Notes: a model not told the origin generated them from the letters alone. A stretch of 64,000 nucleotides of DNA from Candidatus Binatia bacterium (GCA_047611725.1 JBLFWR010000003.1:18779-82778), one strand, 5' to 3'. Shown: positions 16,887 to 41,943, counted from the stretch's first letter. Numbers and translations: made by a program.

Positions 16887-18086
16887 CTAGTCCAAAAAGT
16901 CTCCATCCTTTAACCGCTGGGGTACATACTTTTCGGTAACGTAGGAAATATCCTTTGAGATCAGCGCTTCGACTTCCAGCTTGAAGCCGTTCTTGAGCAT
17001 CAACTGGATTTCGCGCTGCCACTCCCGCTTGTTGGCGAACCACGGGTAAGCCGCGATCTGCTTCGCGCGTTTAATGTCGTTGTCGTTGAGGTCAATCGTT
17101 ACCGACGGAGTTAACTCGCAGGCAGTGTAGTCCTTGCTGCGAAGACCGATGAAGCGGGCATCGGGAATCGCCATACGCTGCGATTCATAGGCCAAATTAA
17201 TCGACCCCTGCTTGAGCACCGAATAGATGTAGTACCCCCAAGGGTCGTTATCGAGCAGGCAATACACCGGTAGTTTCAGCTCGTTGTGCAAGCGGTACAG
17301 CATGCGGCGCACCCCGCGCGGAGGTTGGCCACCACCGTGGGTAAGAATGCACTTGTGGGTGCGCCAAAACTTATCTTCGTTAAAGCGCTGCCAAACAGTG
17401 TCCTTTTCGACGTGCAAGACGAACTTCGCATCGCAGCGCCCAAACTCGATCACGTCGGGCTCCACGATCGATGGAATCCCATAGCCGCCCGATCCCATAT
17501 GTGCACAGTCAATTACGTCGCCATTGTCGGTCAACGTAATTTCACCGACCATGTCGCCCTTCTTCTGAGCGTAGAGATGCAACTGTTCGCGCAGGGCGTT
17601 TAGGGTGACTTCAATGTCCTCAATGATCGGATCGCAATCACCCTGGTCATCGAACGTCTCTTCCTTGGTGCCCGGGATGGTGTGCTTGAGAAGATAGTAC
17701 AGACCACGAATCGATGTGGTCTTGCCCTCGTCAATCAGCTGCTTGCAGCCCGAGCCGACCAGCACCGACTGCATGTAGCTCTTGGCCTGCGAGAGATTGA
17801 ACAACTCGCGCCGATTGGTGCCTGTGCCCATTTCGATGAAGCGCTTGCGCTTGTTGTAACTTACGTTGGACAAGGAGCGAGAAGGAATCTCCAAGTGCGG
17901 CGTGCGGCGTTTGGAGGCCGCGGTGACCACGGAATCGGCCAAGCCTCTTAGTGACGCAAGCGTGCGTTGATCGACCTCGTTCCGCGCAGCGGCCAGTGCC
18001 GCGTTCTTGGCCGCTCGTGCAGCCTCCGCCTTGGCCGCAGCTTTCGTCGAGCCAGTTTTTTTCTTGCCGGTCGCCATCGAAATCAC
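16887..18086 (-). CDS. top6A: DNA topoisomerase VI subunit A (Spo11/Top6A family)
   Basis: Toprim and CAP motifs FVLHVEKD, LLDNDPWGYYIYSV and SINLAYESQRMAIPDARFIGL align closely with archaeal Top6A. The start overlaps the top6B stop by 4 nt. Confidence 0.9.
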   Translation of the reverse strand: MISMATGKKKTGSTKAAAKAEAARAAKNAALAAARNEVDQRTLASLRGLADSVVTAASKRRTPHLEIPSRSLSNVSYNKRKRFIEMGTGTNRRELFNLSQAKSYMQSVLVGSGCKQLIDEGKTTSIRGLYYLLKHTIPGTKEETFDDQGDCDPIIEDIEVTLNALREQLHLYAQKKGDMVGEITLTDNGDVIDCAHMGSGGYGIPSIVEPDVIEFGRCDAKFVLHVEKDTVWQRFNEDKFWRTHKCILTHGGGQPPRGVRRMLYRLHNELKLPVYCLLDNDPWGYYIYSVLKQGSINLAYESQRMAIPDARFIGLRSKDYTACELTPSVTIDLNDNDIKRAKQIAAYPWFANKREWQREIQLMLKNGFKLEVEALISKDISYVTEKYVPQRLKDGDFLD

Positions 18087-20389
18087 ACCAGGCGGAGCTG
18101 TTCGCCCGCCCTACCCTTGGCCGCGTTCTTAACCGCGGGGCCTTTCTTTGCCGTTTGTTTCTTCTTGGTCGTCTTCTTGGTTGGTTTTGCCGCGATTTTT
18201 TTCTTCGGCGATTTCTTCGAAGACTTCTTCGACACCTTCTTGGCGACCTTCTTGGCGACCTGAGCGACTTCCTTCGGTTTCGCCTTGGCGCGCTTCTTCG
18301 GCGCCTTTGTCGCTCTGACCCGGGGAGTCCGCACGCCGCCGTTCGTTGCGGGCCCGGCGTCACCACCATCGAGACGATCGCCAGTAACAACGGCTCCTGC
18401 ATCATCGACAATCAGAACGTTGTCCCCGTAGAATTCTTCTTCGCCTTCTTCTATGCGCTTGCCGGCATCGTCCATTTTCAGGTCGGCTTCGGCTGTCTTT
18501 CGCTGTGCGACTTCAAGAAGTTGCTCATAGACGACTTCCGGATCGGCCTGGTTCAGCTTACCAACAGCGGTCGCGACTTCGCCGAGATAGCGAAGAAAAA
18601 TACTACGACGCTCACCTTCCTGCTTAACACGACGACGACGACGCAAGTAAATTGACAACTTGCGTCCCACAGCCTGGAGCGCGAGTCGCAGTTCCTTTTC
18701 GATTTCGGGGTATGAGGCGACCGCCTCTTTCGATTCGCTGGTAAAAGGCACCCACACGCTACCCATGTGAACAACGATAGAAATCGGACCACCCGGGAGT
18801 TGCCCACGTGACTGCGTCAGACCATACGCACGCCAGTTGGTCTTCATCACGGCCTTAGTAATCGCACAGCCGCCGGCTTGGAACTGCAGCGGGACACGAT
18901 TGGCATAGCGCATGACCTGCATGCCCTGACCATCGGAGACGGTGACCGATTGCATGGCCTCAAAAAGTTTTTCGAGGCAAACGTCATCGACTTTCGATGG
19001 CGACTGACGAGCCGTGAAGCCTGCTGCCTTCAAAATCCGGTCGGCGCTATCGGGGCCCAGCCCATCGAACGAATTGACCAAGAACTGGCGCATGCTGCGA
19101 GCGTCACTTTCAGCCAAAACCTCGCGCAGCCCATCGAGCGAAACCTTCTCAACCGGGCTGCCACCACCAAACGCCAACGCGACCTCAATCTGGAACGGGT
19201 TGCCGCGATACACCGAAGGTGGCCGCGTAGAGGCAACATAAAACTCAGCGGGGACAACTTGATGGAGTCCCGCGAGCAGCAGCGGTTCTCCTATCGGCGA
19301 GATACAGTCGGTCGAGGGCGCAGAGATTTTGGTAGATTGCAGCGAACTATGGAGACGGTCGGCTTCGTCGCGACCAATACGCTTTGTGGACGCGCGAGAG
19401 GAAAGCTTTGCGGACTTGCAAACTTTGCTGGCTATGCCGGGACTGACGCGTGAAAAACTTTTAGTGAGAAACTGCGACAAGGTCTGCCCCTGCGCATCTT
19501 TCAACATCGTGATGAGACGGCCGAGTTCTACACCATAGGGATGGGGCTTGATCTCTTTCGCTTCCGGCGGAAGTTCAAATGTGGAGCGCCGGTATGTGTG
19601 CTGATTATCGTCGGGGTCGTGATAGTGGAGCGTCGCGTGCGGATTCGTGATCGCGGTTTGCTCCAAATACTCGTCAACGCTGCCGCGACCGCGTTTGTAT
19701 CGTGCTTCCAACTCGATCGTCACACGCGTGCCGCTTTTCACTTCCTGCGGCGCGGCACCTTCTTCGTCGGGATCGTAGTGGCTGTCCCACGCGATTCCGT
19801 GTTCGGCCATGTAGGCGCGACCCTTTTCGCCGGGCGCGATGTCGAGACCATTGCCGCGTCCGTTGTGAATTTCGGGCTTGTTGTTCTTCGTGTCGATCTC
19901 CACCTCATAATAATGAACAGGAGTTCGAATCGAGAGTTTGGAGACGATCTTGACTGGCTTGCCGGTCGTGAGCTTGCCGTACATGCCAGCCGCGCTGATA
20001 CCGATGCCCTGCTGGCCACGACTCATACGCAAGCGATGAAATTTGGAGCCGTACAGCAGCTTGCCGAAAATCAACGGAATCTGCTTTTTAACGATACCGG
20101 GGCCGTTGTCCTGGACGGAAACACGGAACCGGTCTTGGGTGGTTCGCTCGATGGCCACCCAGATTTCGGGAACGATGCCCGCTTCCTCACAGGCGTCTAG
20201 CGAGTTGTCGACGGCTTCCTTGACGGTAGTCAGAAGGGCCTTGCGCAGATTGTCGAAGCCGAGCAGGTGACGGTTCTTCGCAAAGAACTCACTGACCGAG
20301 ATCTCGCGCTGCGCCGCCGCCATCGACTGGGCGGTCGCATTCTTACGAGCCTTGGGCTTCCTAGTTGATCCGGCGCTCCGCGTCCCCAC
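18083..20389 (-). CDS. top6B: DNA topoisomerase VI subunit B (GHKL ATPase) with a lysine-rich histone-H1-like C-terminal tail
   Basis: EFFAKNRHLLGF, Bergerat N-box EAVDNSLDA, VQDNGPGI, KPHPYGV and RYANRVPL all match Top6B. GTG start with a GGAGAGGAAG ribosome-binding site. The C-terminal 70 aa is KK(x)-rich. Confidence 0.9.
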   Translation of the reverse strand: MGTRSAGSTRKPKARKNATAQSMAAAQREISVSEFFAKNRHLLGFDNLRKALLTTVKEAVDNSLDACEEAGIVPEIWVAIERTTQDRFRVSVQDNGPGIVKKQIPLIFGKLLYGSKFHRLRMSRGQQGIGISAAGMYGKLTTGKPVKIVSKLSIRTPVHYYEVEIDTKNNKPEIHNGRGNGLDIAPGEKGRAYMAEHGIAWDSHYDPDEEGAAPQEVKSGTRVTIELEARYKRGRGSVDEYLEQTAITNPHATLHYHDPDDNQHTYRRSTFELPPEAKEIKPHPYGVELGRLITMLKDAQGQTLSQFLTKSFSRVSPGIASKVCKSAKLSSRASTKRIGRDEADRLHSSLQSTKISAPSTDCISPIGEPLLLAGLHQVVPAEFYVASTRPPSVYRGNPFQIEVALAFGGGSPVEKVSLDGLREVLAESDARSMRQFLVNSFDGLGPDSADRILKAAGFTARQSPSKVDDVCLEKLFEAMQSVTVSDGQGMQVMRYANRVPLQFQAGGCAITKAVMKTNWRAYGLTQSRGQLPGGPISIVVHMGSVWVPFTSESKEAVASYPEIEKELRLALQAVGRKLSIYLRRRRRVKQEGERRSIFLRYLGEVATAVGKLNQADPEVVYEQLLEVAQRKTAEADLKMDDAGKRIEEGEEEFYGDNVLIVDDAGAVVTGDRLDGGDAGPATNGGVRTPRVRATKAPKKRAKAKPKEVAQVAKKVAKKVSKKSSKKSPKKKIAAKPTKKTTKKKQTAKKGPAVKNAAKGRAGEQLRLV

Positions 20390-20517: not shown

Positions 20518-21033
20518 CTAAATCGGGGACGGGTACCTATTTTTCCTAAATAGGTACCCGTCCCCGATTTCTCTATTCGCAAGGTTCACGTCAGTCCGGG
20601 TCAGGCTCAGACTCATCCCACCACCATTAAAAATGGCCAGGCCGGTCGTGATCACCGATGCCATAGTGTCCCCGGTGGTCGTCCCGTTGGTGGGAGAGGT
20701 GTAGAAACGCTCAGGCGACGTCAATGGATGCTTGGTCGTAAACTTGCCCATCTTACGGTCGTTCAGGGCCTCAATCGGCAAAATCACAACCGCACCCGAC
20801 GCCGCAAACTTCACTTCGCCACTAACTTCCGCCGAGTCGCTGCTAGCCCAGCGATCCCATTTCGAATTGCTGCTCTGCAGGGTGCTGAAATCCAGGACCA
20901 GGTTCAGACGCACCGCAGACGCGCCGAGGTCTCCCGCCAGCGTGCCCTCCTGAATCCAAGGAGATTCGCCCTTGGCCTGCTTGAACGCCATAGCAAGGCC
21001 GCCCATCACCCCTAGGTAGGACGGATTGAACAT
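20518..21033 (-). CDS. Hypothetical protein (possibly the 3' fragment of a disrupted lipoprotein gene)
   Basis: High GC3 ORF of 171 aa. Its last 15 codons and the stop lie inside the palindromic repeat at 20520..20570. Confidence 0.4.
   Translation of the reverse strand: MFNPSYLGVMGGLAMAFKQAKGESPWIQEGTLAGDLGASAVRLNLVLDFSTLQSSNSKWDRWASSDSAEVSGEVKFAASGAVVILPIEALNDRKMGKFTTKHPLTSPERFYTSPTNGTTTGDTMASVITTGLAIFNGGGMSLSLTRTDVNLANREIGDGYLFRKNRYPSPI
20520..20570. repeat. Palindromic repeat element, copy 1 (aaatcggggacgggtacctattt-loop-aaataggtacccgtccccgattt)
   Basis: Perfect arms of about 23 nt. Same family as 27799..27855 and 41899..41943. Confidence 0.85.
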
Positions 21034-21569: not shown

Positions 21570-22037
21570 CTAGTCTCCCGCCCTGGGTACTGGACGCGCT
21601 CCCACCGGATCGCGAAGGGGCCGCTCGCGGGCGAGCCCAACCTCGGCCGGCGAAAACGGTTCTACATTTTCTAGCCCAGAAAACTCGGAGAGCACGTAGT
21701 CCAGCAGGCGCGCCAAACGGGCATCGTCAACAGGAGCCTGCGCGACTCCGGGAACGCGCATGAGATAATCTCGGCCGCCGTTGGCCGTCATGACCGGGCC
21801 AAGCTCGTGCAACGACGGAACGGTTTCAGATCCGGTCCCGTCCATGAGGTGGCAACCCGCGCAGTGAAGGACGTAGTCGTGGCGAACCAAACTCGCAGCT
21901 GACGCAGCTGACGCAGCTGACGGAGTCGACACCGATTGGGGACTGGTCAATACGATTGCCGCATTCTCGGCAGCCACAGCATACGTGGCCATCAGCACGA
22001 GCAACATGCTCGCTGTACCCCAAACAGCCGACTTCAT
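21570..22037 (-). CDS. c-type cytochrome (class I, single CxxCH), probable electron acceptor for methylamine dehydrogenase
   Basis: Signal peptide, CAGCH haem-binding motif, ATGA overlap with mauA. Contains a 9-mer repeat encoding SAASAASAAS. Confidence 0.7.
   Translation of the reverse strand: MKSAVWGTASMLLVLMATYAVAAENAAIVLTSPQSVSTPSAASAASAASLVRHDYVLHCAGCHLMDGTGSETVPSLHELGPVMTANGGRDYLMRVPGVAQAPVDDARLARLLDYVLSEFSGLENVEPFSPAEVGLARERPLRDPVGARPVPRAGD
21895..21921 (-). repeat. 9-mer tandem repeat (gcagctgac x3) inside the cytochrome c gene
   Basis: Seen directly in the sequence. Confidence 0.8.
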
Positions 22038-22582
22038 TTTTCGGGTTGAGCCTCGACGGCCAAACCGATCACCATCGCTGTAGAACAGTTGTAGATCTGT
22101 GAGCTCGCCCCCCCGCACCAATTCACATCGTTGCTTCGATACGGGTGGTAAATCGGACGATCGCCTTCGTTGCGGTGGCAGAAACACCGACCGCAATAGC
22201 TCTTGCCACAGCAGTCGTTGTACCAAATCACATAGTCTTTTCCGTCGGCCGGATTGCGACACGTTCCGATCCAGGACACTGGCGACATCTCGGTCCCCGG
22301 CGGGCAAGCCTTGTGGGAACCACCACAACACGAGCACAAAAATCCATCGATGGCGCAATGCCGCCAGTACTCGCAGCGCATCGGATCTCCGAGTGGACCG
22401 TCGATCCCTTCAGGTGCCGCCGGTGCGCGTGAACTTGAAGCTTGACCACGGGCTACGGGCAAAAGCGGTATCGCAGCGGCGCCCACCAGCAATGCGGCAA
22501 AGCGTCCGAGGAACCCACGGCGAGGCATCCTGCGCGCCGCTTCACGCGAGTAGCGTTCCATCGTTCGATCGAGTCGGTTCAT
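22034..22582 (-). CDS. mauA: Methylamine dehydrogenase light (TTQ-containing) subunit
   Basis: Tat signal RRGFLGRFAALLVGAAA. The mature part aligns with Paracoccus MauA (CEYWRHCAIDGFLCSCCGGS...CPPGT...DCCG...RC.C). ATG in ATGA overlap with mauD. Confidence 0.9.
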   Translation of the reverse strand: MNRLDRTMERYSREAARRMPRRGFLGRFAALLVGAAAIPLLPVARGQASSSRAPAAPEGIDGPLGDPMRCEYWRHCAIDGFLCSCCGGSHKACPPGTEMSPVSWIGTCRNPADGKDYVIWYNDCCGKSYCGRCFCHRNEGDRPIYHPYRSNDVNWCGGASSQIYNCSTAMVIGLAVEAQPEK

Positions 22583-23235
22583 GCTCCGCCTCCTGTAGAA
22601 ACGCCTTCCGGACCGTCTCCCTTGTCCAACTCCGCCGGATCTGCGTGATCCGCCAACCAATCCTGGATCGACGCAACTCCCAGCCTTTCGGCTTCGAACA
22701 GGCTTTCCAGGTGTTCGCGTGTGTTGACCAAGCCCTTCGCTCGCAAAATCCCTTCTGCATCGATCAAAACGGCGTAAGGAAGTTTCGCTACTTCGAAACT
22801 AATCCCCAGGGCCGCCGACACGACATACGGCATCTCTTCAAGATCATGATCGGACACGAAACGGCGATGCTCTTCCTCATCTCCATCGCTTGCCAACACC
22901 ACTCGAAGCGGAGGCACTTGGGATCGAGCCACACGTAAGACCGTTGGCAACAAAACCTTACAAACCGGACAGGTTGGAGACAGGAAGAACACAAGCGTGC
23001 GACGACCATCGTCGGCCGGGCCGCCGATCGAAACTGGGGTACCAGCCAAGGTCGGTACTTCCAGCGTTGGTGCAGGCTCACCAACCTCGGGACCCGAACG
23101 GTTTAGCATCGCGCCCGCCGGAGCGAGACGTTCGTGTAAGACACCGACCTGTCTGATCAGCGCCAGCACGATGAACGCCAAAGCCACGACGACAACCCAA
23201 AGTAACACGTTGGAGATCAACAGGGTTTCGTTCAT
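22579..23235 (-). CDS. mauD: Methylamine utilization protein MauD (thioredoxin-like)
   Basis: N-terminal transmembrane helix and thioredoxin-like CPVC motif (FFLSPTCPVCKVLLP). Position between mauE and mauA. Confidence 0.75.
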   Translation of the reverse strand: MNETLLISNVLLWVVVVALAFIVLALIRQVGVLHERLAPAGAMLNRSGPEVGEPAPTLEVPTLAGTPVSIGGPADDGRRTLVFFLSPTCPVCKVLLPTVLRVARSQVPPLRVVLASDGDEEEHRRFVSDHDLEEMPYVVSAALGISFEVAKLPYAVLIDAEGILRAKGLVNTREHLESLFEAERLGVASIQDWLADHADPAELDKGDGPEGVSTGGGA

Positions 23236-23801
23236 ATCTGTCTCTCCAACGCCCGGGAAGCCCAGGAGGAATGCATCGAATTCTGCGCAACCAGTAAGCG
23301 TTCGATCGATTGCCAGGCTAAAGCCGCAGCAGCAACGCACGCGAAAACAGTTACCGCGTCTAACCAATGAAGCGAGCGAGAAACCGGTGTGACGAACAAA
23401 CTGGAACCGGCAACCAAAAGTGCGACATTTCGGACGATCAGTGCAGGCCCTAGTCTTTGATACAGTTCTGGACCGCCGCAACCGCAGTCGATGTCTCGGC
23501 GCCCACGCGCAACGTTCACGGAAATCGCAGTCGTATACGCGAGCAGAAGGCCCGACACCGCAGCGGCCGCCACAAACGGCGGCGCGAACAGTGCCGCGAG
23601 GCCAGTCGCCCCTTCAAAAACGACAATCGCCGTGCCGGCCGCGCGCACCCAGGTTTTCGGCAGTATTTCGTAAGCCCACAAGGTGCGCCGAAAGGCGTCG
23701 AGATCGGCGATCTTGTGACGCACGCCGACTGCAAAAAGACCGGCAAAGCACAGCCGAACAATCAGCTGTACGATCAGGTCGCCCAGAAAAAAAGCGATCA
23801 C
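23232..23801 (-). CDS. mauE: Methylamine utilization protein MauE (membrane)
   Basis: About 185 aa with four transmembrane helices, located between mauB and mauD. ATGA overlaps on both sides. Confidence 0.7.
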   Translation of the reverse strand: MIAFFLGDLIVQLIVRLCFAGLFAVGVRHKIADLDAFRRTLWAYEILPKTWVRAAGTAIVVFEGATGLAALFAPPFVAAAAVSGLLLAYTTAISVNVARGRRDIDCGCGGPELYQRLGPALIVRNVALLVAGSSLFVTPVSRSLHWLDAVTVFACVAAAALAWQSIERLLVAQNSMHSSWASRALERQI

Positions 23802-25183
23802 GGAAGCGCCATGATCCCGCCGGAAATTCCGGATTCTTCAAGGTTTCGAACATGCTCACCGGTCAACGCGTCTAGGACACCGATGGCACCGAGTTCGGAG
23901 TGACGAACGAACAACAACGGCTGTGCGTCCTGGGTGACAACAACGCTGTGCGCGCCTAACGACGGCAGCAGCCACGAAATTGCGCGGTAGGCGAAACTGT
24001 CGGATTCAAGATCAAGATACGGACGAAGAAACGGAGCTACCAACCCTGGGGCTTCATACGTCGCCACCGAAGTGCGCGCGTGGCTATCGTAGACCCGAAT
24101 CTCGAAACCCGGATCTTTGTGTGAACCCGGACCGCCCTGGTGAACAAGCGAATATAGACGTCCGCTGTCGCGATGCAGTGAGAGGTGCTGTACTCCGCCG
24201 ATCCTCCAACCATCCGCACGCTCGGAGTCAGAGAATAACGACCACCGCTTGCTAAGACTCGGCACATCGCCTGACGTTTCCACTTCGTGAAGCCAGCCGT
24301 CGAAGGAAGCAAAGAGCCATTTCGACCCGTCGCGTACCCCTTTTTCGGTAATCGGATCTTCGACGACATCAAAGAACGGTTCGCTCGAAACTAACGCCGC
24401 CGACTCTCCGGTCTCGTCGAGCTGTACAGCCATCGCGGTACCGTTGCCGCACAGCATGATGAAACTCGCTGGCCCCGTAGGATAAACTCCAGCGCAACCT
24501 GCCGTATCGATGGTTGCCACGAAACGTCGTGCGATGAGATCAACAACTCCGACGGCTGCGGTCGGATTCTGGCTGAAAACAACTAGGAAACGCCCCTCAT
24601 CCAAGACATCCACGAGGCCAACACCGTGGCCGGCCTCGGCGGTGTGAATCGGCAACTTGATTTCGCCAACTACGCCAAGACTTCGAGAGTCATAGATTGT
24701 GACGAAATCGGAGCGCTCACCGTAGTGTCCCCGCGCATACACGGACTCGACCATGTAGAACTCACCGCGGACACGGGATCCGAGCGGAGCGCGACCCGCG
24801 ATGTTGAAATTTGTGTCAATCGCTCCAAGGACGTTGCCGTCGTCACCATCGAAGAGCAAAGAGTGTTGGAAAATGCGGTCCGCGACCCAAACCCAGTGGT
24901 CGCCAGTGGTGTCGGGCAGGCTGGCTACGATCCCGTGAGGGTCTGCCTCAAGCTCGGCAGACGCGGCGCCGGCTCCCGCGAGGACGGTCCCCGCGACGAC
25001 GACCAGCGCGAGCAGCGGCAAAGCGAACAACGGCGCTTGGACGTGAAAGGGGTGCCGTAATCGCGACAATCGCGTCTCGCGCGTCTCGTCCGACTTTCGC
25101 CTCATTTCCGTTTGGCCCGTTGCGTCCGTCGCGCCCGTTTTGCCCGGCCTGTTCATGTTGCCCATGTTGCCTATGTTGCCCAT
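23798..25183 (-). CDS. mauB: Methylamine dehydrogenase heavy subunit (beta-propeller)
   Basis: Signal peptide and a 7-bladed propeller composition (FVVFSQNPTAAVGVVDL...). First gene of the mau cluster. The start is ambiguous: candidates are M1 at 25183 or MRRKSDE at 25105. Confidence 0.85.
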   Translation of the reverse strand: MGNIGNMGNMNRPGKTGATDATGQTEMRRKSDETRETRLSRLRHPFHVQAPLFALPLLALVVVAGTVLAGAGAASAELEADPHGIVASLPDTTGDHWVWVADRIFQHSLLFDGDDGNVLGAIDTNFNIAGRAPLGSRVRGEFYMVESVYARGHYGERSDFVTIYDSRSLGVVGEIKLPIHTAEAGHGVGLVDVLDEGRFLVVFSQNPTAAVGVVDLIARRFVATIDTAGCAGVYPTGPASFIMLCGNGTAMAVQLDETGESAALVSSEPFFDVVEDPITEKGVRDGSKWLFASFDGWLHEVETSGDVPSLSKRWSLFSDSERADGWRIGGVQHLSLHRDSGRLYSLVHQGGPGSHKDPGFEIRVYDSHARTSVATYEAPGLVAPFLRPYLDLESDSFAYRAISWLLPSLGAHSVVVTQDAQPLLFVRHSELGAIGVLDALTGEHVRNLEESGISGGIMALP

Positions 25184-27798: not shown

Positions 27799-27855
27799 AA
27801 TCGGGGACGGGTACCGATTTAGCGTAAACGCTAAATCGGTACCCGTCCCCGATTT
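27799..27855. repeat. Palindromic repeat element, copy 2 (26-nt perfect arms, taaa loop), positioned between two convergent stop codons
   Basis: aatcggggacgggtaccgatttagcg-taaa-cgctaaatcggtacccgtccccgatt. It abuts the LLM stop at 27795 and the metzincin stop at 27856. Confidence 0.85.
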
Positions 27856-41898: not shown

Positions 41899-41943
41899 AA
41901 TCGGTACCCGTCCCCGATTTTTAATCGGGGACGGGTACCGATT
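41899..41943. repeat. Palindromic repeat element, copy 3 (arms in swapped order, ttt loop), between convergent genes and overlapping the 41942 stop
   Basis: aatcggtacccgtccccgatt-ttt-aatcggggacgggtaccgatt. Confidence 0.85.

Follow-up and report, generated by a model that had tools for sequence, protein, structure and literature searches.

The 64,000-nucleotide stretch of DNA analyzed here, referred to below as the window (Candidatus Binatia bacterium, GCA_047611725.1 JBLFWR010000003.1:18779-82778), contains a two-gene operon, top6B-top6A, predicted to encode a type IIB topoisomerase, DNA topoisomerase VI (topo VI), with all catalytic and DNA-sensing motifs intact. Beyond its last structured element the B subunit carries a disordered bipartite appendage, consisting of a basic linker and a short terminal motif, QLRLV. 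This appendage is new: as the initial annotation of the locus had supposed, no description of a basic, lysine-rich or disordered tail on topo VI was found in the literature searched. The same annotation regarded the Lys-rich tail as the key feature of the enzyme. The tail is real, but its Lys-richness is not conserved even in the close relative P0002, and the conserved element is the terminal QLRLV peptide, which had been missed. The earlier observation was confirmed and its interpretation was supported in part, a bacterial topo VI with a histone H1-like tail being less remarkable than claimed. The peptide resembles the motifs by which bacterial proteins bind the beta sliding clamp (DnaN), and the chance that it is itself such a motif is put at a little short of even.

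The two genes and the C-terminal parts of Top6B are arranged as follows:

18083..20389, minus strand: top6B coding sequence, 768 aa, GTG start, with the strong Shine-Dalgarno-like sequence GGAGAGGAAGAA ahead of it

16887..18086, minus strand: top6A coding sequence, 399 aa counted from a GTG

18404..18541, minus strand: end of the Top6B stalk, with helical hairpin and YGDNVLIV block, residues 617-662, the last conserved structured part

18320..18403, minus strand: Gly/Asp-rich disordered spacer, residues 663-690, net charge -1

18119..18319, minus strand: Lys-rich low-complexity segment, residues 691-757, net charge +27, with one SPKK at residue 727 and (xxKK)n repeats

18086..18118, minus strand: terminal peptide KGRAGEQLRLV, residues 758-768, with QLRLV at 18086-18100

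Conservation of Top6B ends after the YGDNVLIV block (residues 654-661), and about 105 residues follow in the three parts listed. An AlphaFold2 (AF2) model based on a 40-sequence alignment has a predicted local distance difference test score (pLDDT) below 50 over nearly all of residues 648-768. The 67 aa of the Lys-rich segment include 26 K, 2 R and 1 E, and the net charge of the whole tail is +28. Lysine peaks in this segment at 19 per 40 residues, the next highest value among the 51 long open reading frames (ORFs) being 10, and no other ORF of at least 40 aa in the 64 kb window reaches 12 K per 40 residues.

Three lines of evidence show that the Lys-rich tail is not a reading-frame artefact. 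In the annotated frame the GC content at third codon positions (GC3) is 0.70 over the tail and 0.75 within the Lys-rich segment, higher than in the other two frames (0.58 and 0.51 over the tail); the choice between AAG and AAA in the tail matches the rest of top6B; and the frame leads into GEQLRLV, a peptide that relatives also encode in frame although the rest of their tails cannot be aligned. The Lys-rich tail of about 70 aa described in the initial annotation is therefore a real, in-frame segment of 67 aa (691-757), predicted to be disordered.

The assignment of the two minus-strand genes to topo VI also stands; the ORFs lie at 16887-20389, all peptides quoted for them are present, and a profile search placed both products in topo VI above equivalog cut-offs. 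Top6B scores 667.4 bits against the NCBIfam equivalog NF003218 (cut-off 274) and 480.1 bits against TIGR01052 (cut-off 380.7), matches Pfam HATPase_c and the topo VI-B transducer PF09239 (1.5e-51), and has Methanosarcina mazei Top6B as its best PDB match (2q2e_B, E = 1.5e-139). Top6A scores 550.8 bits against NF003333 (cut-off 465), matches TP6A_N PF04406 (7.2e-14) and the Top6A/Spo11 Toprim model PF21180 (3e-60), and is closest in the PDB to Sulfolobus shibatae Top6A (2zbk_A, E = 2.1e-76). The MutL model TIGR00585 reaches 18.4 bits on Top6B, far under its cut-off of 180, which excludes a place for it in that other GHKL family, and GyrB models are not among the NCBIfam matches of the window proteins. 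An artefactual, frameshifted tail, or membership of the pair in another GHKL/Toprim system (MutL, GyrB, topo VIII, Mini-A, Wadjet or Gabija), can practically be dismissed. Nothing speaks for it except the unusual composition of the tail, and it is refuted by the profile scores, the PDB matches, the GC3 and codon use and a terminus conserved in frame among relatives.

At the extreme C-terminus of Top6B a small number of forms can be told apart, and their distribution tracks the core phylogeny. Class A, the subclade of the window enzyme, has 11 members ending in G(E/D/N)QLRL[VI]. In class C, a sister clade that includes a Binatia metagenome-assembled genome, the end is Q.ELPLx preceded by a basic patch, while a large planctomycete group (class B) ends in DPQxxLF and a further Top6B group in QxxLL. 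The terminal motif was found in 91 of the 199 unique bacterial-clade Top6B sequences of a first set, where 1000 shuffles of the tails gave 0.33 matches on average and never more than 3, and in 100 of 273 in the full set. An independent metagenome sample contained it in 10/74 (shuffle mean 0.06) and a third sample, mostly of fragments, in 34/120. Under a strict rule it was absent from all 119 outgroup representatives of about 50% identity; it was also absent from 839 non-Top6B ORFs in all fetched DNA and from 88 Top6A C-termini. The outgroup came from a library of 50%-identity representatives, which collapses the bacterial clade to one representative and was used as outgroup only.

The retention of the peptide while the adjacent linker diverges beyond alignment is a stronger argument than the counts. 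Class A members keep G-E-Q-L-R-L-V across unalignable linkers of 16 to about 120 aa. In class A, the search pattern itself prescribes the Q, the two Ls and the final aliphatic residue; beyond it, R occurs at -3 in 10/11 members and G-E recurs ahead of the motif. In class C, E at -5 (17/17) and K/R at -8 (15/17) are likewise outside the pattern. A ribosome-binding site or start overlap of top6A was rejected as the cause of this conservation, the motif being retained at loci where top6A lies 36-379 nt downstream. Class A stayed at 11 members because the closest relatives in the metagenome scan share 74% identity at most; a homology search with the C-terminal third of Top6B added none to class A, its matches being mostly gene fragments. 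An exact-sequence look-up among contigs gave no match for the window Top6B.

Bacterial clamp-binding motifs have the form QphixLF, with the consensus QL[S/D]LF, in which positions 1, 4 and 5 are the most important. A second form, QphixLxL, is represented by Pol IV (QLVLGL) and Hda (QLSLPL), and in the alphaproteobacterium Caulobacter HdaA depends on the sequence QFKLPL for its interaction with DnaN and for replisome localization. The QLRLV of the window enzyme matches positions 1, 2 and 4 (Q764, L765 and L767), the QxxLF form of class B matches positions 1, 4 and 5, and the QxELPL form of class C agrees at positions 1, 4 and 6 and, like Hda and HdaA, has Pro at position 5. The location also agrees: the consensus is found at the C-terminus of clamp partners, according to a review, and the window peptide occupies the extreme C-terminus within predicted disorder, as clamp motifs typically do. 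Like the C-termini of Pol II and Pol IV and the motifs of Hda and HdaA, it is a terminal peptide that follows a disordered linker; Q occupies position 1, L position 4, and position 5 or 6 is hydrophobic. Those motifs end in F or L, whereas the window form ends in V, making it a candidate binder.

Several observations weigh against a clamp-binding role. Neither F at position 5 nor L at position 6 is present in the window peptide, which ends at V768, and substitution at position 5 is reported to weaken binding. The aliphatic residue at position 2 is missing in classes B and C, which have K, G, Q, R, P or E there. No validated clamp motif of the QLRLV form, and nothing linking topo VI to a clamp-binding motif, was found in the literature searched; bacterial topoisomerases are absent from the clamp partners listed in a review. 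About 63% of the bacterial-clade Top6B sequences (173/273) lack the motif and end in short acidic tails, so clamp tethering would not be general to bacterial topo VI. In addition, the shuffles preserve composition and not relatedness, so that the raw motif counts are not counts of independent events and overstate them. Finally, topo IV of Escherichia coli is positioned via MukB and SeqA, not via the clamp.

This last fact also favors the view that the peptide is a genuine short linear motif for another partner, such as a ClpXP/Lon degron, a site for SMC/ScpAB, FtsK or SSB, or a latch onto Top6A or the GHKL gate. A conserved hydrophobic extreme C-terminus would fit degrons as well, and position 5 is V or I in the class to which the window enzyme belongs. 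Such an explanation appears doubtful: Q is invariant three residues before L, in the forms QLxLphi, QxxLF and QxxLPL, each of which mirrors a known clamp form, the AF2 model displays no intramolecular docking within Top6B, and no conserved neighboring gene suggests a dedicated partner.

Clamp-like ends also occur outside the strict pattern. Outgroup clusters about 52-53% identical to the window Top6B (P0132, P0195 and P0126) end in QLDLVK or QGLFDR, which resemble clamp motifs and were missed by it, and a conserved MRL[VI]NGKLVPVD block precedes the end in both P0126 and P0195. In the 22-aa tails of class B (for example L009 and P0112: …NVLIVEQDPEDLLLNLTASDDPQKKLF) NVLIV is directly followed by another conserved element, (D/E)Q(D)PE(D/E)LL, and these tails may hold two short linear motifs. 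One outgroup Top6B of 649 aa (P0264) has the canonical PCNA-interacting (PIP) box QNTLDSYFG at its end, a hint that topo VI may sporadically be tethered to clamps outside bacteria too. An archaeal PIP-box ancestor was rejected as a general explanation for the bacterial motif, this being the sole PIP box among 119 outgroup sequences.

Past NVLIV the C-terminus of Top6B is hypervariable, with tails of 2-125 aa among relatives. The following tail types were distinguished:

short and acidic: the majority of relatives

K/R-rich with a basic run at the end: several separate subclades, together with several outgroup clusters of about 50% identity

strongly Lys-rich, within the subclade of the window enzyme: P0001, P0004, P0010 and P0012

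net charge about -1 (13 K+R, 14 D+E): P0002, with a core 86% identical

only 21 residues: P0020

Since the tail of P0002 has a net charge of about -1 versus +28 in the window at 86% core identity, and other relatives have acidic or short tails, Lys-richness in these sequences is best described as a recent, lineage-specific elaboration and not as a feature of the topo VI family. Basic tails arose repeatedly in the hypervariable C-terminus in different arrangements. A planctomycete subclade (L041, L050, L051, L056-L080, L139 and L147-L155) has K/R-rich tails ending in a basic run (for example KKRRVKK) without the terminal Q-motif, and in P0116 and P0341 an internal QKELF is followed by a basic end.

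Given that Lys-richness differs completely at such high core identity, a low-complexity expansion with almost no selective effect could also account for the segment, which counts against a DNA-binding function. It might then be slippage-expanded DNA in a permissive disordered linker, of which only the length and flexibility would matter, together with the peptide. The coding DNA has a weak 12-nt periodicity (VAKK VAKK VSKK SSKK SPKK), which suggests that the segment arose by slippage-driven expansion of a 12-nt xxKK unit; the linkers of close relatives range from 16 to about 120 aa and from -1 to +28 in net charge, and the window has no other such segment. Although plausible, neutrality is judged improbable, since a basic stretch lies directly upstream of the motif in all long-linker class A members and in class C, and the recurrence of basic tails in separate clades suggests selection for positive charge.

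The description of the tail as histone H1-like is valid for its composition and not for homology. The C-terminal domain of histone H1, chlamydial Hc1 and the tails of mycobacterial HupB resemble it in K/A/P-richness, the single SPKK and predicted disorder; the window tail shares no sequence homology with them and lacks the H1 globular domain. Searched alone against Pfam at E up to 10, the tail matched only DUF5427 (E = 1.2) and no H1 or Hc1 family, so the term can refer to composition only. A closer parallel is provided by the topoisomerase TopA of actinobacteria (Streptomyces and Mycobacterium), which also ends in a low-complexity tail of lysine repeats; in Streptomyces these repeats stabilize the enzyme-DNA complex and give processivity (PMC5714199). 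The window Top6B shares with tails of the TopA type repeated Lys clusters, (xxKK)n, in a predicted disordered C-terminal region. TopA is, however, a type IA enzyme with phylum-wide repeats, whereas the window Top6B is a non-homologous type IIB subunit whose Lys-richness is confined to a few close relatives. By analogy with TopA, DNA binding by the Lys-rich segment appears somewhat probable.

The Lys-rich tail could also be adaptive by itself, as an H1-like DNA-clamping module, with the terminal peptide having no separate role. Its net charge of +27, the SPKK, its position beside the DNA gate and the TopA precedent are compatible with this, as is the independent recurrence of basic tails in several Top6B subclades and outgroup clusters. 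This explanation is considered unlikely: at 86% core identity Lys-richness is lost and the terminal peptide is kept, the tail belongs to no H1 or Hc1 family, and the invariant Q/L positions and the absence of the motif from 839 other proteins would be left unexplained.

The position of the tail in the enzyme is the basis for a model that combines DNA contact with DnaN docking. In cryo-electron microscopy structures of M. mazei topo VI, a small helical hairpin at the end of the Top6B stalk binds the winged-helix domain of Top6A beside the channel for the G-segment. Residues 617-662 of the window Top6B correspond to this Top6A-binding region of the archaeal structures, and the tail leaves the subunit where the M. 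mazei hairpin docks beside the G-segment; the model is therefore proposed. The Lys-rich segment would contact DNA flanking the G-segment non-specifically, acting as an electrostatic tether that raises affinity and dwell time, like the repeats of TopA. The terminal peptide would dock on DnaN clamps left on nascent DNA and concentrate the enzyme behind replication forks, and topo VI recruited in this way could remove precatenanes and positive supercoils on newly replicated DNA. The window itself does not contain dnaN. The probability of the combined model, in which a DNA-binding Lys-rich linker and a DnaN-docking peptide together form a disordered tether, is rated as evenly balanced.

At the same point as the window tail, M. 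mazei Top6B has an Ig-like C-terminal domain after the stalk, which is mobile and for which a role in directing the enzyme to a partner or a region of the cell was proposed. The two appendages are unrelated in sequence; the Ig-like domain is a folded beta-sandwich, whereas the window tail is predicted to be disordered and ends in a linear motif. C-terminal extensions of archaeal Top6B occur only in gyrase-containing lineages, which has been read as a specialization of topo VI.

Topo VI has been documented in 17 bacterial families, including the Pseudomonadota representative Bradyrhizobium sediminis, and the bacterial clade derives from archaeal transfer (Allen & Maxwell 2024, PMC11302465). Topo IV is reported to be kept by carriers of topo VI among Pseudomonadota and Terrabacteria, and in Pseudomonadota topo VI is reported alongside gyrase and topo IV; its role in bacteria was called unresolved (Allen & Maxwell 2024, PMC11302465). 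Relatives of the window enzyme were found in at least 588 species-level GTDB genomes (one genome per species; 600 matched stretches), mostly of Planctomycetota, Acidobacteriota and "Deltaproteobacteria," and more than 8000 proteins match at E <= 1e-20. The view that such enzymes are seen only sporadically in bacteria thus understated their distribution, and alphaproteobacterial topo VI had already been published. By sequence, the window enzyme belongs to a known and common bacterial clade, the one that includes the published enzymes of Pirellula staleyi and Bradyrhizobium sediminis. The published account (PMC11302465) describes neither a C-terminal tail nor a motif for these enzymes, and the window Top6B has both.

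A wider proposal is that part of the bacterial topo VI clade, the window enzyme included, consists of unrecognized beta-clamp clients. The motif would have been gained after the archaeal transfer and diversified to QLRL[VI], QxxLF and QxELPLx, the Lys linker being added in the lineage of the window enzyme; the outcome would be a replisome tether and a role distinct from those of gyrase and topo IV. This scenario is possible, with the balance somewhat against it. What topo VI does in bacteria is recognized as puzzling, above all for Pseudomonadota, in which gyrase and topo IV are reportedly retained (Allen & Maxwell 2024), and a terminal docking peptide offers a concrete, testable hypothesis on where and when bacterial topo VI acts. 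If true, it would place the first bacterial topoisomerase among the clamp partners of the review, and a horizontally acquired archaeal enzyme would have been wired into a bacterial interaction hub. It would also parallel the idea that C-terminal appendages of Top6B specialize the enzyme in gyrase-containing organisms.

The remaining domains of the two subunits are arranged as follows:

19685..20335, minus strand: Top6B GHKL ATPase domain, with E58/N62 (KEAVDNSLDA), D94 (VQDNGPGI), the G2 box at 123-132 and KRGR at 232-235

19319..19543, minus strand: first H2TH domain of Top6B, residues 283-357

18923..19150, minus strand: second, duplicated H2TH module of Top6B, residues 414-489, inserted in the transducer and absent from M. 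mazei Top6B

17979..18086, minus strand: basic Ala-rich N-terminal extension of Top6A, residues 1-36, upstream of the family-model match

16911..17423, minus strand: Toprim domain of Top6A, with E227 in HVEKD and D279/D281 in DNDPWG

The GHKL motifs EAVDNSLDA (58-66), VQDNGPGI (92-99, with D94-G98 as the G1 box DxGxG) and SRGQQGIGIS (123-132) align with those of M. mazei, and their residues are invariant across 40 relatives. KPHPYGV is found at 281 and RYANRVPL at 494; K232-R233-G234-R235 aligns with the KGRR loop of M. mazei, W519-R520-x-Y522 represents the WKxY motif, and the switch lysine is K554 in FTSESK. In Top6A, the catalytic-tyrosine motif RGLYY (127-131) lies in the winged-helix/5Y-CAP region upstream of Toprim, where HVEKD occurs at 225 and DNDPWG at 279. 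With these motifs intact, the window topo VI is predicted to be catalytically competent, and an A2B2 type IIB architecture is implied. The archaeal enzymes (M. mazei 2Q2E and the 9O0G series; S. shibatae 2ZBK) have the same GHKL, H2TH, transducer and stalk parts in B and winged-helix/5Y-CAP and Toprim parts in A, all catalytic and DNA-sensing motifs being common to both. The window enzyme differs from them in the second H2TH in the transducer, a GHKL insert of about 44 aa, the basic N-terminus of Top6A, and the disordered tail and terminal peptide where M. mazei has its Ig-like C-terminal domain. NF003333, the top NCBIfam equivalog for Top6A, is named "DNA topoisomerase IV subunit A" although it represents the PRK04342 Top6A family and its sibling model is named VI; this naming quirk could spread misannotation.

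The second H2TH module corresponds to a 73-aa insertion in the transducer relative to M. mazei. It was identified as an H2TH duplicate by hhalign (98.2%, E = 4.5e-14, 69 columns; controls 0.2%); NFACT_N matches it at 3.5e-5, and the AF2 model predicts four helices. Allen & Maxwell 2024 (PMC11302465) gave a "unique alpha-helical bundle" in the transducer only for Pirellula staleyi and a dinoflagellate xenologue and did not name it H2TH; whereas the bundle was treated there as specific to P. staleyi, it is present here in all of the 40 aligned members of the bacterial clade. The duplicated H2TH and the Lys-rich linker are two more candidate DNA-binding elements on a well-studied mechanistic scaffold. 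At about 44 aa, the insertion in the GHKL domain (Top6B residues ~175-218; window 19736-19867, minus strand) is located between M. mazei residues 160 and 172 and is partly conserved in the clade, with G179, G181, D183, G190, I199 and W201 invariant.

Whether the two genes overlap, as was first annotated, depends on the start of Top6A. They share 4 nt (GTGA) if the GTG at 18086 is used. The Top6A proteins of bacterial relatives typically begin with MAKKK..., with a basic N-terminus of 15-40 aa (loci L010-L069). These starts favor the ATG at 18077 (MATGKKK...), which is probably the start codon and would leave a short intergenic gap instead of an overlap. The Ala/Lys-rich beginning of Top6A pointed out earlier is present; judged by these relatives, such a short basic N-terminus is a clade-wide trait and not peculiar to the window gene. 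In the 81 loci compared, only top6A and top6B are consistently linked, and no third gene conserved near the operon was found. Two families of small, putative ORFs (~124 and 197 aa), on the opposite strand upstream of top6B in 27 planctomycete-type loci each (L003-L080), are absent from the window.

A Top6B listed under Hyphomicrobiaceae bacterium (protein MFT4569414.1) differs from that of the window only in the start-codon residue, and by this match the host is assigned to the Hyphomicrobiaceae, Alphaproteobacteria. The entry (P0121) was rejected as a second independent assembly, the sequence being the same save that residue. Directly upstream of the topo VI operon, on the minus strand (window 21570-25183), lies a methylamine-utilization (mau) cluster with genes for the methylamine dehydrogenase heavy chain, MauE, a thioredoxin-like MauD candidate and the light chain, which is consistent with a methylotrophic Hyphomicrobiaceae host. 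The other neighbors of the operon are ordinary metabolic enzymes. A mobile element or genomic island was rejected: no hallmark genes are nearby, and the GC content is 0.56-0.57 versus ~0.58-0.60 in the window.

An Rfam scan of the window gave zero matches, and in a scan for promoters and terminators nothing exceeded the shuffle expectation apart from one palindrome:

20522..20568, no strand assigned: perfect palindrome with a 20-bp stem, ~135 nt upstream of the top6B start

The palindrome belongs to an intergenic family with three copies in the window (20522-20568, 27803-27850 and 41901-41941) of the form GGGGACGGGTACC(T/G)A...T(A/C)GGTACCCGTCCCC, for which 6 arm matches were found versus 0.94 expected by chance. 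Two of the copies sit between convergent gene ends, and in sequence the palindromes look like repetitive extragenic palindromic (REP)-type or bidirectional terminator hairpins. The remaining copy, ahead of top6B, is likely to act as an insulator between the operon and the mau genes upstream.

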